64,000 nucleotides of DNA from Patescibacteria group bacterium (lineage in GTDB: Bacteria; Patescibacteriota; Patescibacteriia; Patescibacteriales; UBA12465). The stretch's first letter is position 1. Each line of letters begins with the position of its first letter. The notes below the pieces were generated by a model. That model did not search any database. It had not been told where the DNA came from and saw nothing but the letters and a program-made list of their open reading frames with translations. This document shows, in pieces, positions 9,909 to 47,937 of this stretch. The stretch spans positions 158,284 through 222,283 of the forward strand of contig JBMNFV010000001.1 in assembly GCA_050949505.1 (NCBI GenBank), read 5' to 3'. The position numbers and the translations under genes are program-made.

Positions 9909-10958
9909 TTATTCGCAGGAAACATCAATTGGCATCGCGGCGCCAACGTTGTAGCCAAAGCCAGCGGAGGGGCTAGCGTTGGACAAGATGGTGGCACACT
10001 CCTCAGGAGCCTCATTAAAGGCGCTGCAAATAGTGGCTAATAGAGATGCTGAGTCGCGACTAGTCTGAATGGATTGTCCATTGATAACTAAAGTAGGCGA
10101 TCCACTAACTCCATAAAGGGCATTGTCTTCAGCATAAATATCAAAGCTTGGATAGTTTCCTTGGAAACCTATCTTATTGCGGAAATTATCCATAATTTGG
10201 TATTCTTGATCAGTTTGATTGTAGCAGGTTGCTAGGGCAGTAGCATTAACCTTAGCTTCGGCGACACAACCATCATGGTCACCGTCAGCTAAGAAGCAAG
10301 CGAGGTAGTCTAGATACTTATCGCCCTGTTCCTCCTTAATGCAATGCTGATTGATTTGTTCTACTAACTCCACTTCTCCGTGCATAGCATAGGAGGTGAA
10401 CTTAATTTCAAAATCTATTTTGTCGCCCAAAGTTTCTACAACTGGCAAGATTCCTTTTTCCATTTGGGTGCCGTAAGGGCAATGACTCATAACAAATAAT
10501 TCAACCGAAGGTCGGTCAGATTTGTTAGAAACCATAGCAACGGGCTGAGAACTACCTCCTTCAAGGTCATAAAAATCAGAATAAATTTCACTAATATCAA
10601 AAGCTTGAGGGAAGAAGAGACGGCCATCTTTAGTAAGATAGGACTCAACAACCTCGGTGGTAATATCAACACTCATTTTGTATAGACCATATTCACTAAC
10701 AATTTCTTTAACTCGGGCACGGCCGTCGTCTATCAAGAAAGTGTTAATAAAGTCTTCAGTCTGGGCAATTGCTTCAGACTTGCTAAGAGTCTTGCCAGGC
10801 TTAAGAGCGACTAGATTGCCGCTAGTAGTCTCGCCCTTGTTGCCAGAGCTGTTAATAGATAGGGCAATAATAATGCCCAAAACGGCCACAACCGCCACAG
10901 CAATTAAGAGAGTTGAAATGCTGGTCTTCTGGTTGAGAACAGATTTGATCTTACTCAT
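9909..10958 (-). CDS. Membrane-anchored extracytoplasmic thioredoxin-fold (DsbA-like) oxidoreductase
   Basis: 349 aa. N-terminal TM LLIAVAVVAVLGIIIALS. CxxC in VELFVMSHCPYGTQ. Further Cys pairs lie in the C-terminal half. Confidence 0.6.
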   Translation of the reverse strand: MSKIKSVLNQKTSISTLLIAVAVVAVLGIIIALSINSSGNKGETTSGNLVALKPGKTLSKSEAIAQTEDFINTFLIDDGRARVKEIVSEYGLYKMSVDITTEVVESYLTKDGRLFFPQAFDISEIYSDFYDLEGGSSQPVAMVSNKSDRPSVELFVMSHCPYGTQMEKGILPVVETLGDKIDFEIKFTSYAMHGEVELVEQINQHCIKEEQGDKYLDYLACFLADGDHDGCVAEAKVNATALATCYNQTDQEYQIMDNFRNKIGFQGNYPSFDIYAEDNALYGVSGSPTLVINGQSIQTSRDSASLLATICSAFNEAPEECATILSNASPSAGFGYNVGAAMPIDVSCE

Positions 10959-17577: not shown

Positions 17578-18573
17578 ATGATAAACATTTTAGTTGACTC
17601 AAGACACCCGGAGCTAGTCATCCCGGCCACGGTATTTATATACCAAAATAGGGGAAAATATAGAGATGAACAATTCTCTATCATCCCCGTTCAAGCCTCT
17701 GACCTTGATACCGACTTTTTAAAAGTCTATCAAGGGTTAGATAGAGAATTAACTGACCTAGCCGGAGGCCAGCCCTTTTCCCAAAGCCGAGGAGGTGAAA
17801 ATAAGTTTATCATTTTCGGGATTTATCCCGAGAACAAGAAGGAGGAGCAAAAAATAGCTTACTTCTTTGATAAACATTCCGATAATATAGTTTTATGGCT
17901 AGACAATCATCCCTGGCCAGGAAACTTATTAAGATTTTTAACCTCACAAAATCCTGAGGTTAAAGTGGACAACACTAAAACCATTCTGGAGCTATATGCT
18001 CAGGTGAGTGGAATTGAAGATGAAATGAGCGATGAGTGGCTCGAGATTGAGGAGGCTCTAAAGTATAAAAACATTAACCAGCCCCTGGCAGGCAGGTTTC
18101 TTAAAAATTTTAGGATTTTTGAAGAATACTTAAGCGATAGCTTAAGTGCTAGGACGGAACTGTTTCTCTTAAGCAATTCTATTGCTATAGAATTGCTGTC
18201 CGGAGAAGAGAACCTAGGCTTAACCGAGGGAGAGAATATGTATGAAAGAGAGCTAAAGCCTCAGTATAACTTCTCTGAGAAATTTAGCGACTCCTTGCCA
18301 ATATTGTCCGAGGCAAAAAAAGCCGGGAGGTCCATTGGATTTCTCTGGCTGGACAATCCTCCGGCCTACCTTGATGCCCAAGAGGCAATTGATCAGGGAC
18401 TAAAAAGGTTCCCTTGGCTCTGCGTCCTTGGGTTTAAAATTAATAATACGAACCACATTTGGTTTGGCTCCAAAGTAGTTCCCTTGATTAGAGGGAGCGC
18501 TAGAGGAGCTAGCGTAAGAAATGTGGAAAAGTTTTTGAGAGTAATCCAGTTGGATATTCTCAAGATGAAATAA
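17578..18573 (+). CDS. Hypothetical cytoplasmic protein with no family recognised
   Basis: 331 aa ORF with its own promoter and terminator. No TM or signal peptide. By eye there is only a weak parallel to the DHH phosphoesterase motif order (ILVDSRHPE / FIIFGIYP / LWLDNHPW), with catalytic residues replaced. Confidence 0.55.
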   Translation: MINILVDSRHPELVIPATVFIYQNRGKYRDEQFSIIPVQASDLDTDFLKVYQGLDRELTDLAGGQPFSQSRGGENKFIIFGIYPENKKEEQKIAYFFDKHSDNIVLWLDNHPWPGNLLRFLTSQNPEVKVDNTKTILELYAQVSGIEDEMSDEWLEIEEALKYKNINQPLAGRFLKNFRIFEEYLSDSLSARTELFLLSNSIAIELLSGEENLGLTEGENMYERELKPQYNFSEKFSDSLPILSEAKKAGRSIGFLWLDNPPAYLDAQEAIDQGLKRFPWLCVLGFKINNTNHIWFGSKVVPLIRGSARGASVRNVEKFLRVIQLDILKMK

Positions 18574-20472: not shown

Positions 20473-20856
20473 GGGGATGCCAGGCATCGACAGTCGAGTT
20501 TTTCTGCTAATATTCTAAACGTGCTTAACTATCACGCTAAACTAGTTAACACAGACAAATGCCAAAACGGCAAGAGCGTTCACTTGGCCAGTTCCAAGTT
20601 ACGCCCCAGTTATGGCCTAAACAATAAGGCGATAACCATCGAATAATAGCCAGTCTCCATAACTATTAATCGGTGTCATAATCATGGAGATAGAAATTAA
20701 TTAAGCTTAGTGATTAATTTCAAATCAATTTTAAGCTCGTCATTAGCGCTTTTTGCTTGATTTATGATGCTAATGATTAACCAAATAAGTCAAGCTATTT
20801 TAGTAAATGTATTAGTGGAAAGCGATTGGACATGGGTTCAACTCCCATCATCTCCA
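20473..20856 (+). ncRNA. ssrA: tmRNA (one-piece)
   Basis: 5' GGGGAUG pairs with 3' CAUCUCC (20849-20855, one G-U pair). The T-arm GGGTTCAACTCCC precedes it. An internal ORF from GCC at 20561 to TAA at 20618-20620 reads AKTARAFTWPVPSYAPVMA. Confidence 0.85.
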
Positions 20857-20860
20857 CATT

Positions 20861-20946
20861 GCCGTGGTGGCGGAATTGGTAGACGCGCTGGACTTAAAAT
20901 CCAGTTACAGTTTTATGTAGTGCGGGTTCGATTCCCGCCCGCGGCA
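20861..20946 (+). tRNA. tRNA-Leu (anticodon TAA), class II with a long variable arm
   Basis: Acceptor GCCGTGG/CCGCGGC, anticodon loop CTTAAAA, T-arm GCGGGTTCGATTCCCGC. Starts 4 nt after the tmRNA end. Confidence 0.9.
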
Positions 20947-20951
20947 CATAA

Positions 20952-21023
20952 GCGGGTATCGTATAGTGGCTATTATGCGACCTTGCCAAGGTCGAGAGAC
21001 GAGTTCGATTCTCGTTACCCGCT
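20952..21023 (+). tRNA. tRNA-Gly (anticodon GCC)
   Basis: Acceptor GCGGGTA/TACCCGC, anticodon arm CGACCTTGCCAAGGTCG, T-loop GTTCGATTC. Confidence 0.9.
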
Positions 21024-32627: not shown

Positions 32628-35663
<3,036 letters not shown>

Positions 35664-35690
35664 GTTTTTAGATTACCGTATTTTCTCTAT

Positions 35691-35707
35691 TTTAACGTCG
35701 ATTTGTT
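35691..35707 (+). other. 3' strand of the outer 23S processing stem, in the 23S-5S spacer
   Basis: Complement of 32496-32511. Confidence 0.7.
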
Positions 35708-35722
35708 ATAAAAAACGCTATT

Positions 35723-35840
35723 GTTCTGGTGGTTTTAGCGGAGGGGTCACACCTGATCCCTTCCCGAACTCAGAAGTTAAGCCCTCCAGCGCTGATGATA
35801 CTTGGGCCTGAGCCCTGGGAAAGTAGGTCGCCGCCAGAAC
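35723..35840 (+). rRNA. rrf: 5S ribosomal RNA
   Basis: GTTCTGGTGG...CGCCAGAAC terminal helix. Internal CCGAACTCAGAAGTTAAGC and GGGAAAGTAGGTCGCCGCCAG. Confidence 0.9.
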
Positions 35841-35996: not shown

Positions 35997-36752
35997 ATGA
36001 CACGAATAGTTATTTTAGCGGCTGGCAAGGGAACACGAATGAATGTTAATTTGCCTAAGGTATTAGTTAAATTAAATGGTTTGCCGATGATTAGATACCT
36101 AATGGACTCAGTGGCTATGTCGGGAGTAGATCAGCAACCACTCATAATTGTCTCAGCAGATAATAAGGAAATTATTAGTCAGGAGCTTCAGGACTACTCG
36201 GCTCAATACGTGATTCAAGACAAACAATTAGGTACGGGGCATGCGGTGGCTTGCGCCTTAGAGGCACTAGCCAAGGACAGGCAGCAACCGGATAAGGTAG
36301 TGGTGTTTTATGGTGACCATCCTTTTGTTAGCGCTAGAACAGTTAGAGAATTAGCTAAAGAGGAGCCAGAGGCCCTAACTATTACCTCGGTTAAGGTTAA
36401 TAATTATGAAGGTTGGCATCGGAACTTTTATCACTGGGGGCGAGTAATTAGGGGAATAGAGGATAAGGTGGAGAGAGTGGTAGAACTAAAAGAGGCCAGT
36501 GAGGCAGAGAAAGAGATTCAAGAGGTTAATGGAGGTTTTATGTGCCTTAACTTCGCTTGGGCCAAGGAGGCGGTTAAGCGAATTAATAATCAGAACAGTC
36601 AGCAGGAATATTATTTAACCGATTTAGTGAAGTTAGCAGTTGATGATTGGAAGCCAGTTAGCATTTTTTCAGTAGAGCCTCATGAGGCTATGGGAATTAA
36701 TAGTTTAGAGGAATTAAGATTAGCCGAGGGCTTGCTCAAAGAGGGCCGATAA
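35997..36752 (+). CDS. Sugar-1-phosphate nucleotidyltransferase (GlmU N-terminal-domain-like, no acetyltransferase half)
   Basis: 251 aa. Motifs: ILAAGKGTRMNVNLPKVL, QLGTGHAV, YGDHP. It ends before any left-handed beta-helix hexapeptide region. Confidence 0.8.
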   Translation: MTRIVILAAGKGTRMNVNLPKVLVKLNGLPMIRYLMDSVAMSGVDQQPLIIVSADNKEIISQELQDYSAQYVIQDKQLGTGHAVACALEALAKDRQQPDKVVVFYGDHPFVSARTVRELAKEEPEALTITSVKVNNYEGWHRNFYHWGRVIRGIEDKVERVVELKEASEAEKEIQEVNGGFMCLNFAWAKEAVKRINNQNSQQEYYLTDLVKLAVDDWKPVSIFSVEPHEAMGINSLEELRLAEGLLKEGR

Positions 36753-44583: not shown

Positions 44584-44910
44584 AGATAATGTAGGGTCTT
44601 GGTAGTTAAAGAAGAAGGTGAGTTTGTTTTTGGAAAATTAATAAGCTGCCCAAAATAATTTAGGTAAATTAGCCCAGAAGTTTATCAGGTTTTTTAGCTA
44701 ACTTTAAGCAATAATTACAATAAAGCATAATTAAATAATCTCAAAAAAACAAGCTCGATCAATAAAAACAAACAAAATTCTTTTTCTTTAACTAACAAAA
44801 ACTGTCCTATTTAATAAATTATAAATTACCTTATTACTCTAGCACTAATTTTAGATTTTGGGAAGGGGGCAGGAGCTTTAAGGACTACTTAGTCAAAAAT
44901 TACGCCACCA

Positions 44911-44939
44911 TTGACTTTTATCTAATATTGCGATATACT
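44911..44939 (+). promoter_or_regulatory. Promoter of the first Fib_succ_major gene
   Basis: TTGACT (44911-44916), 17 nt spacer, TATACT (44934-44939). Confidence 0.5.
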
Positions 44940-45004
44940 AATCATAGTTAATACAAGATTAACTAGTAATTTAACAATTGAATAATAACAAAAAATATAT
45001 TGAA

Positions 45005-46267
45005 ATGAAAACAATTCTGAAATTAGGCATTAAAAAGGCGATAGTCTTTTTAGCCACCGCTGTTTTCCTGGCCACTAGTTGCCAGGAGGTGCCCCCGACC
45101 GTTGTAACTGGGGAAGTGAGTGTTAATATAACTGAAGCCAAGCTAACTGCTTGGGGAAAGGTAACTAGAATGGGTAGCGAACAAGTAACTGACTTTGGCT
45201 TCTGTGTTAGTAAACACGCCGAGCCAACGATTAGTGACCTTAGCTATAATGCAGATGGACCTCAAGCAAACTTTAATGTAAGCATTACTGACTTAGAGGT
45301 TGGTCAAACCTATTTCATTAGAGCCTATGCTCGTAGTTTAGCAGGCATAGGTTATGGACAGACAAAGGAAGTGGCCTTCAATAGTCTCTCTAAAGTTAAA
45401 ACCTTAGAAGCGACTCAAGTAAGGGACACTATAGCCACACTTAGAGCGGAAGTTCATACCTATGGCTACGCGACTAACACCTATTTTGAAATTTCTTCTC
45501 CTAGTTTAGGACTACGTCAAGTTCCAGTAACTAGTGAAGGAGAGATAGAGCTTGAAGTAGGGGGTTTAGCTAGAAGTGAAACTCATAGTTATACTATCGT
45601 CTCTGAGAATGAGCATGGGATAGCTAGAGGAAAGACTGCTAGCTTCAAGACTTGCCAAGAAATAGTCAAAGACTATGATGGTAATGAATACATTGCTATC
45701 AAGATCGGTGAACAAGTATGGTTGCAAAGCAACCTTAAAACTACTCACTTCTTAAATGGTGACCCTATTCCTGAGGTCACTGATAACATTGAGTGGATAA
45801 ACCAAACTGGTCCCGCTCGCTGTTATTACGATAACGACCCTCAGAATGGCGAAATCTACGGCGCTCTCTACAACTACCACGTAGGTGTTGACCCTAGAGG
45901 ACTAGTGGCGGGGTATAAGATTATGAGCGATAAAGAGGATTGGAGTCCCTTAATACTACTGCCAGACGAAGCTAGAGACCTAATGTCTCCGGACTACTGG
46001 TTAAGTTATGAAGGCTTACCAGTCTCTGGTATCACTAATTCCACTGGATTTAGTGCTTTGCCAGGAGGGAGAAGACGTATTATTACTGACGAGAGAGTAT
46101 TACCGATAAATTCGGAATTTTCCGAATTTAGAGTGGATGCCTTTTTTTGGACTAGTGACAAGTATGGCGTATACGGAGACTACATTAACCTAACTAATAC
46201 TCCTGGTAGCAGAGCTGGAATATTTCATTTCCAAACAGGCCTTAGCATAAGGCTAGTTAAGGAGTAA
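45005..46267 (+). CDS. Lipoprotein with Fn3-like N-terminal repeats and a C-terminal Fibrobacter-succinogenes-major-paralogous (Fib_succ_major, lectin-like) domain
   Basis: I start at ATG 45005 (MKTILKLGIKKAIVFLATAVFLATSC, lipobox-like). The track starts at TTG 44978. The C-terminal domain reads YDGNEYIAIKIGEQVWLQSNLKTTHFLNGDPI...CYYDNDPQNGEIYGALYNYH...NSTGFSALPGG...GLSIRLVKE. Confidence 0.75.
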   Translation: MKTILKLGIKKAIVFLATAVFLATSCQEVPPTVVTGEVSVNITEAKLTAWGKVTRMGSEQVTDFGFCVSKHAEPTISDLSYNADGPQANFNVSITDLEVGQTYFIRAYARSLAGIGYGQTKEVAFNSLSKVKTLEATQVRDTIATLRAEVHTYGYATNTYFEISSPSLGLRQVPVTSEGEIELEVGGLARSETHSYTIVSENEHGIARGKTASFKTCQEIVKDYDGNEYIAIKIGEQVWLQSNLKTTHFLNGDPIPEVTDNIEWINQTGPARCYYDNDPQNGEIYGALYNYHVGVDPRGLVAGYKIMSDKEDWSPLILLPDEARDLMSPDYWLSYEGLPVSGITNSTGFSALPGGRRRIITDERVLPINSEFSEFRVDAFFWTSDKYGVYGDYINLTNTPGSRAGIFHFQTGLSIRLVKE

Positions 46268-46276
46268 ATTAAAATT

Positions 46277-46309
46277 AAAGCGTTAATAATAACTATTAAC
46301 GCTTTTTTA
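46277..46309 (+). terminator. Terminator after 45005..46267
   Basis: AGCGTTAATA / TATTAACGCT perfect 10-bp stem followed by TTTTTT. Confidence 0.8.
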
Positions 46310-46357
46310 GATATATGCTATAATATAATTAGCTAAGAATAATTACTAGTTTAGTTT

Positions 46358-47937
46358 ATGAAACTATTTTATAAAAAATCATTAATTATTATTACTATCT
46401 CCTTAGGAGTTTTGGTGGTCGCTAGTGTACTTTCTGCGGTGGTAATAAATCAAAAAATAATAGACCAAGTAGGCAATGGCTTTAGATCGAAGAATACTCC
46501 TGGAAAAAACACCACGGCTGTCTTCTGGAATACTTCTAATAACTACAATCCTGCGACAGTAGCTAGTACGATTACTCAAATAGGGACTTGTATAGTTAAT
46601 AGTACCAACGTAGACTACTTCGTCCCCACCAGAACTAAAGGCGAGTGGAATTCTTTTGTAAGTGCGATCAATAAAAAATCAGTAACAGGGCTTTCTCTCT
46701 CAGACTTTTGTCCTGGTAATGGACAGTGTAATACTGTAGTGGGAGAGAATTGTGCTAACAGTTTAGGGGATTGTGGCTCTTGTGGTAGCCCTTGTCCCAG
46801 CTCAATTAGTTATGGAGGAGAGAGCTATGGTGTAGTTCAAATCGGCAGTCAGTGCTGGTTGGACAGAGACTTGAATGTTGGCACATGAGATAAGTCAAGG
46901 AAATAGTCCAGCCAACTAATAAGGGAGTTATAGAGAAATACTGTGTTGGCGAAGCAATAAGTGTTTCATCCTTCAGGCTTCAGGATCAAGGTGGACATCT
47001 ACACCAGGAGCGAGGCTACTGGCTTGGGGAGTACACCAGGCACGCAACAGGGAATATGTCCAACTGGCTGGCATGTACCAACGATGTCAATGAGTTTTCT
47101 ACCTTAGAGTAACTATTTATGGAGGGAACGTCGGAGGCCGGAGGGAATGTTAAAGGAGGCGGGGCTCCTGCAATACGGGAAGCGATGCGATTATTTAGTA
47201 CTGCTAATCATAGCCTATGATCATTGCGGTGGCGAAGTCACCAAATCCGTGGTAGCAAGCTCTCATGGGCCATGGCTTTAATGCGCGAGCCTACGTTTAT
47301 TTACACTGACCCAGCGTCCTTAACTTGCATGTGCGAATATAGGCAGAAAATACAGGATATTGGGCATCAGATGCTGATAACGTGCATGTGGACTTTATCA
47401 CACAGTAATACTAATCCTTTTGAGCCAGATAGCCGGTGCTCATCACCAACATACTATAATAATTATCAAGCCAGTCTCCCGGTCCGCTGTGTTCGTGATG
47501 AGCCTGCAATAAGGTTTTATGCCATCTTTGATGCTGGAGATTATGGGACTGTTAAAACTAATAGTGTGGCCGCTACAAGTAGTATCACTCAAATTATTTA
47601 TGGAACAGGAAAAAATACCGAAGCCGTAACAGTTACTCCATTTTCTGGCTATACATTTGATAGCTGGGAAATAATCTCTCCTACCCCTTCTATTAAAAGA
47701 ACTAACCCTTGGACTATCTCTAATATAAATGACCATTATTATGCAATAGCTCAGTATAAAGACAGTAGTTCAGGTGGCTCTGGATCTTCAGAAGAGGGGG
47801 TGTGCGCAGTAAGAGGAACTCTGCCTATTCACGGCTTTGACGGAAGGATACCAGACCCAACATTTGGGGATTACTGTGGGAGCCTAGGAGTAACACAATG
47901 CTTAAATTCTCCCGGGTGTGTATGGCTCTTTCAATAG
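46358..47937 (+). pseudogene. Disrupted surface-protein gene: TM anchor, Cys-rich spacer, Fib_succ_major domain (multiply frameshifted), Listeria/Bacteroides-repeat-like module, Cys-rich tail
   Basis: Track ORFs 46358..46888 and 47224..47937 are its two intact ends. Domain pieces between them are readable only by switching frames (see findings). The TTG at 47224 is not a credible independent start. Confidence 0.6.

Follow-up and report, generated by a model that had tools for sequence, protein, structure and literature searches.

DGRs are common in Patescibacteria, and hypervariable surface-protein loci ('metagenomic islands') occur in near-clonal populations. To our knowledge, no function has been established for the FISUMP / Fib_succ_major family. 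In DGR targets of the CLec2 class, such as Legionella LdtA, a surface-exposed lectin-like domain varies while the scaffold stays constant, the change being adenine-directed substitution in a variable region of 100-150 bp (PMC5758913). Long-read metagenome assemblers (metaFlye, Canu and others) are reported to collapse strain variation into one consensus, one contig then standing for several haplotypes (10.1101/2023.01.31.526521).

The locus described here was analyzed in a window of 64 kb (the whole stretch of DNA under study) from a Patescibacteria genome of 0.7 Mb. Like a strain-collapsed consensus, the contig would stand for several haplotypes at this locus and is otherwise clean and contiguous; unlike the usual strain collapse, in which variation is suppressed at the SNP level, the window appears to interleave alleles that are about 25-30% apart and differ by many indels, and the reading frame is broken. 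Like the CLec2 targets, the locus varies in a lectin-like domain on a constant scaffold; unlike them, it displays whole-domain allele replacement with indels. Like metagenomic islands, it holds differences between two sibling loci that are confined to two FISUMP genes, and one strain carries a different C-terminal half; unlike them, its scale is that of a single-domain cassette and its host is a genome of the small size mentioned above. It is probable, in our judgement, that two alleles of the FISUMP domain, which is genuinely hypervariable, were interleaved in a strain-collapsed consensus; the run of frameshifts most likely exists in no genome.

The broken gene and its intact siblings

The surface-protein gene occupies 46358-47937 (+) and is broken in the window, while it forms a single intact 509-aa ORF in its siblings (P0001 and P0029). 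Its layout comprises a TM anchor, a conserved N-terminal region, a Cys-rich spacer, the FISUMP/Fib_succ_major domain, an InlB-B-repeat-like module (a weak PF18998 match, below the Pfam threshold) and a Cys-rich tail. The first ORF (46358-46888, +; 176 aa) carries the hydrophobic N-terminal anchor and the Cys-rich spacer and ends with YGVVQIGSQCWLDRDLNVGT followed by TGA at 46886-46888; it is open throughout, as is the frame from about 47395 to 47937. The original prediction had picked out this TGA, further stops and a series of domain pieces in changing frames, all of which are present in the sequence as described. When these pieces were concatenated, they aligned collinearly with PF09603 over profile positions 1-187 (42.6 bits; gathering score 33.9), and tblastn with intact relatives returned the same piece order. 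None of the window's own ORFs at the broken domain reached the Pfam threshold, and the match requires pieces from three frames to be joined.

The ORF at 47386-47937 (+) is annotated in GenBank as the hypothetical protein MGI6373909.1 (ACOX0C_01055, 183 aa). The deposited protein was found to be an exact translation of the window, window-specific residues included, and the window sequence is therefore that of the deposited MAG. Upstream lies an intact paralogue of 429 aa (44978-46267, +) with a Fib_succ_major domain of its own (PF09603, aa 241-428, 88.1 bits). Together with the broken gene, this paralogue forms a two-gene locus that varies between strains; in the paralogue the differences between strains cluster at 45900-46200, and one short-read contig (L009) breaks off at 45924.

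A protein search with the stitched sequence led to the intact 509-aa orthologue P0001 (L001:10001-11530) on the JGI metagenome contig Ga0591961_001004 (locus L001), where the gene order is the same as in the window. Residues 160-363 of this protein matched PF09603 over profile positions 1-187 with 50.4 bits (cut-off 33.9) and TIGR02145 with 57.6 bits (cut-off 41.65), so that both models recognize the full domain above their curated thresholds. The full-profile matches, the N-terminal membrane anchor and the conserved cysteines of the intact sibling are all typical of the FISUMP / Fib_succ_major family. No solved structure for P0001 was found by sequence. The footprint of the domain in the window, mapped via the identical flanks, is approximately 46835-47496 (+). 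The comparison with sibling genomes that had been proposed thus revealed the same gene intact, at 509 aa, in sister assemblies, and judged from these sequences the real gene is an intact one whose predicted product is a membrane-anchored surface protein.

A 627-bp island of one-directional differences

The blastn comparison of the 21.5-kb L001 locus with the window gave a single alignment covering window positions 36358-57937. Every one of the 111 differing positions in the 21.5 kb aligned fell within 627 bp (46846-47472, +), a clustering well in excess of chance. Outside this island the window equals L001 exactly, including 488 bp of the 5' part of the same gene (46358-46845, +) and 465 bp of its 3' part (47473-47937, +), both 100% identical at the DNA level to the intact sibling. 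It was thus borne out that the Fib_succ_major domain is broken between intact flanks. The island lies inside the domain footprint (P0001 aa 160-363), and only the conserved first and last motifs of the domain are spared.

Relative to L001, the island is an L001-type allele with 59 substitutions, 40 insertion events (51 nt) and 1 deletion, and the at least six frame changes counted earlier prove to be a lower bound. The differences are one-directional: A or T is the starting base of 55 of the 59 substitutions (A 21, T 34), 44 go from A/T to G/C and none from G/C to A/T. The 627 bp of the window reach 46.4% G+C, compared with 37.6% in the corresponding 577 bp of L001 and 39.7% in the whole window, in agreement with the G+C-richer region noticed before. 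Five of the 31 single-base insertions equal the adjoining base, and all seven homopolymers of at least 5 bases in the L001 island are interrupted in the window, none being left. Synonymous changes among the 59 substitutions were borderline (20 observed vs 14.6 expected, p = 0.057) and an enrichment at third codon positions gave p = 0.15; neither was counted as evidence. Rfam at gathering thresholds returned no structured RNA in the island. Taken together with the second allele described below, the island reads as two alleles seemingly interleaved base by base.

The pattern bears on the reading of the gene as a genuine pseudogene, which either decayed in situ or came by recombination from a G+C-richer donor allele that had decayed beforehand. 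In favor of this reading are the stops and frameshifts themselves, in a surface gene that is dispensable and varies between strains, and the one strain that has no such domain (P0002); the reading nevertheless strikes us as very unlikely. The flanks carry zero substitutions over 21 kb vs about 17% altered positions in the island; neutral decay is expected to run in both directions with a deletion bias, to spread its lesions by length, and would not spare 950 bp flanking in the same gene, whereas all differences were found in 627 of the 1580 bp, with 44 A/T-to-G/C changes vs 0 in reverse and 40 insertions vs 1 deletion. A decayed donor leaves unexplained both the near-complete, ordered L001 bases, of which only 1 was deleted, and the match of the added bases to the L005 allele (see below). 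The earlier suggestion of decay confined to the ligand-binding domain thus fails against the intact-gene sibling with its 100% identical flanks, and no mark of recent acquisition of the gene was found.

A DGR acting on a C-type-lectin-like variable region is the least probable of the alternatives and close to negligible. Domains of the Fib_succ_major / DUF1566 type do belong to a known DGR target class, CLec2 (PMC5758913). However, the 64-kb window contained no template-repeat-like copy of the island, nor any direct or inverted repeat partner of it, and neither the window ORFs that were scanned nor the sibling locus, by its gene table, included a reverse transcriptase. Moreover, many indels separate the alleles along about 600 bp, and the substitutions start from both A and T rather than from one base on one strand; judged on these ORFs and this gene table, the island does not have the character of a DGR variable region.

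Alleles at the locus and the source of the window-specific bases

With a few SNPs, the L001-type island is found again in Logan SRR30309660 (L003, encoding the intact 509-aa P0029) and in ENA ERZ2647912 (L007). In the latter (L007:1584-2630, about 1x coverage), the L001-type gene ends at 348 aa through a frameshift near the domain end, which is probably an ordinary low-coverage error.

A different allele was obtained from JGI 3300060823. Its contig L005 starts inside the island, about 97 nt short of the right edge (about 47377), with a third sequence, in which the frame is kept open (GFWTFEGRAVILKYINPFTDIISHSSSNNYEASLPVRCVRDE), and past the island it is 99.98% identical to the window over 4.9 kb. 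The partner contig on the left side, L009, agrees with the window at 100% identity up to its end at 45924. The L005 sequence is A+T-rich, with 36.8% G+C. We also considered the L005 allele as a deletion fusion with the upstream paralogue; the L005 peptide does not match that paralogue. In a more distant strain (GCA_025563055.1), the 326-aa protein P0002 (L002:1072-2052) has its N-terminal roughly 140 aa in common with the broken gene, and its C-terminal half is unrelated: in place of the FISUMP domain and B-repeat it consists of Cys/Gly/Pro-rich repeats, a lectin domain being absent, and P0002 gave no Pfam match.

L003 and L001 show 85 differences over 8.4 kb, every one of them between 44.9 and 47.9 kb, in the two adjacent FISUMP genes; they form patches at 45900-46200, 46400-46800 and 47700-47900, and roughly 5.5 kb of flanking genes are identical. 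Judging by this confinement, the two adjacent FISUMP genes (window 44900-47900) are a genuine hotspot for variation between strains. The L005-type allele (JGI 3300060823) and the L001-type allele (JGI 3300060679) were recovered from separate samples with flanks 99.98-100% identical, so that divergent alleles co-exist on nearly the same background. The short-read contigs break at 45924, about 47377 and 47474, the last being the start of the Logan contig L015 (SRR31066156) at the first base past the island. Since short-read assemblies break at the island edges, several alleles are indicated to co-exist. A search based on P0001 for related loci confirmed none in the genome-contig and metagenome-contig collections, and exact 26-mer scans of the left flank gave 0 matches there, the two collections including neither the source MAG nor the JGI contigs.

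The 3' part of the island (47355-47473, +) is the sole part that can be compared with the L005-type allele, and here the window-specific bases match that allele. The longest common subsequence (LCS) with L005 was 83 for the window vs 73 for L001, and in 5000 noise simulations, in which the same inserted and substituted bases were placed at random, it averaged 72.6 (sd 1.4, maximum 78; p < 2e-4). Strings that are common to the window and L005 and are made by window-specific bases include ACGTGCA, TAATCCTTTT, CAGATA, GCTCATC and AAGCCAG. In a three-way alignment of this part, L001-only bases were kept in 21 of 21 cases and L005-only bases were added in 4 of 7; where the two alleles conflict, the L005 base was taken in 6 of the 13 columns in which it is G/C, in 0 of the 17 in which it is A/T and in 0 of the 9 that are G+C-neutral. 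Because L005 is itself A+T-rich, the extra G+C of the island stems from the way in which bases were picked and not from a G+C-rich donor. Within 119 nt, the L001-type background is interrupted by at least four L005-type patches, each 1-4 informative columns long, an interleaving too fine-grained for ordinary recombination and tested directly over the 3' fifth of the island.

For the island as a whole, we used a profile of 29 distant FISUMP domains, from which this gene's own cluster was left out. The frameshift-aware alignment to this profile, a check that the original prediction had called for, scored 74.9 bits for the window and 127.7 bits for L001, while L001 with random changes of equal amount and spectrum scored 25 +/- 12 bits; none of the 300 simulations reached the window, and two other penalty settings agreed. 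Threading through all 110 window-specific bases gave 224.9 vs 181.6 +/- 7.6 for noise (0 of 60). The peptide threaded from the window is an over-fitted reconstruction of the second allele (for example, the known LPVRC became SVRC), and only its score against the controls was used. The second allele is known over about 97 nt, and the two-allele origin of the other roughly 500 nt rests on the profile-based simulations. From these comparisons of sequence, the window-specific changes are not random noise and, in the 3' 119 nt, are evidently directed to a second natural allele.

These results weigh directly on the idea that a single L001-type allele was overlaid by random local sequencing error, for instance in a gap fill or in a long-read patch left unpolished or at low coverage. 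As such an error would have it, the damage consists mostly of small indels and affects a single short segment, the contig being perfect elsewhere. Random error is nonetheless a highly improbable cause, since the window-specific bases lead toward another natural allele, the domain signal is kept far better than in simulated noise of equal amount and spectrum, and there are zero G/C-to-A/T changes. A raw long-read error patch is marked by homopolymer indels and by changes that are uninformative about alleles; here few of the single-base insertions extend the adjoining base (5/31), and the long homopolymers are broken rather than mis-counted (7/7). The simulations and the lack of homopolymer-type indels thus reject plain random sequence error, one of the explanations first put forward, whereas the proposal of a mis-assembled, strain-hypervariable region gained support from the co-existing alleles, the contig breaks at the island edges and the window-specific bases that point to a second natural allele.

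Probable origin of the island sequence

What the sequences show are the directional differences, the match to the second allele, the co-existing alleles and the siblings with an intact gene; the sequencing platform, and a consensus step as the cause, are inferred. The source MAG is a single contig of 706,112 bp, and the window crosses a 23S-5S rRNA block; the short-read sibling contig ends about 1.1 kb left of window position 36358, inside or at this block. A single contig of this size that passes through rRNA genes suggests that long reads, alone or in a hybrid assembly, were used. In the window, the block (32636-35839) consists of a 23S rRNA gene (3022 nt vs a 2925-position model) and a 5S rRNA gene, with no 16S gene adjoining within the window, and the rRNA genes appear to be unlinked.

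The course of events in a strain-collapsed consensus would be as follows. In the population, the FISUMP (C-type-lectin-like) ligand-binding domain exists in at least two widely divergent alleles, the rest of the genome being the same; the domain is probably swapped as a cassette from strain to strain through recombination at the conserved motifs on its borders. Reads of both alleles may then have piled onto one backbone, the L001-type allele, and a consensus or polishing step would have retained all backbone bases, added the extras of the second allele and picked G/C at conflicts. The outcome would be a frame-hopping sequence that is longer and G+C-richer than either allele. Nanopore read errors reportedly lean to deletions and to A/T (PMC8486125). 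The two biases of the presumed merge, by which no base is dropped and G/C is preferred, would be the mirror image of these read-error biases, and an error-correcting consensus model might be expected to pick G/C and to keep extra bases in a mixed pile-up. For the one-way merge itself (44 vs 0 substitutions, 40 insertions vs 1 deletion and seven broken homopolymers), the link to the nanopore error model is by analogy. Counted against a consensus artefact is that the consensus is perfect everywhere else in the 21.5 kb compared.

The same fine-scale mixture could come from a living cell. In that case, the window would hold a real mosaic pseudogene allele, produced from a heteroduplex of an L001-type cell with L005-type DNA that was partly repaired toward G/C; the heteroduplex would have formed across the cassette between the identical flanks, short-patch or base-excision repair would have been patchy, and some looped-out bases would have been copied in before replication. 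Such an origin is unlikely, though less so than those dealt with above. It accounts for a mix of two natural alleles on an L001-type background, the G/C-only direction (44 vs 0; 6/13 vs 0/17) is as expected of G/C-biased mismatch repair, and the remaining genome compared is clean. However, all 21 recipient-only bases were kept and bases were gained almost without loss (40 vs 1), whereas repair should remove loops too, and a mismatch of about 25-30% makes an unlikely recombination intermediate. Exact-product look-ups with the window-type ORFs of 176 aa and 183 aa returned no other contig, and so no independent assembly or gene call with them; the upstream 429-aa protein likewise had no exact match on record. 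The gene would also be a dead one, sighted a single time, in an assembly type known to collapse strains (10.1101/2023.01.31.526521). If the heteroduplex reading were true, the window would preserve a failed allele swap, frozen as a single-event snapshot of G/C-biased gene conversion in Patescibacteria.

With the strain-collapsed consensus as the preferred reading, the locus is of concern for quality control, in that a deposited, near-complete Patescibacteria MAG would present as chimeric and frame-broken a gene that the population carries intact. The record annotates the broken gene as a 183-aa hypothetical protein plus fragments, and pseudogene counts, pangenome comparisons and selection analyses that use it would be misled at this locus. 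The signature of the artefact, namely perfect flanks, insertions only, A/T-to-G/C changes only and short-read breaks at the edges, may flag similar spots. The underlying biology is modest but real: the FISUMP ligand-binding domain appears to be exchanged as a cassette between otherwise identical episymbiont-type genomes, and such an exchange fits selection from hosts or phages.

Elsewhere in the window, two ORFs, at 9909-10958 (-; 349 aa) and 17578-18573 (+; 331 aa), matched no Pfam family at E <= 1e-3, and a tmRNA gene followed directly by two tRNA genes is located at 20473-21023.
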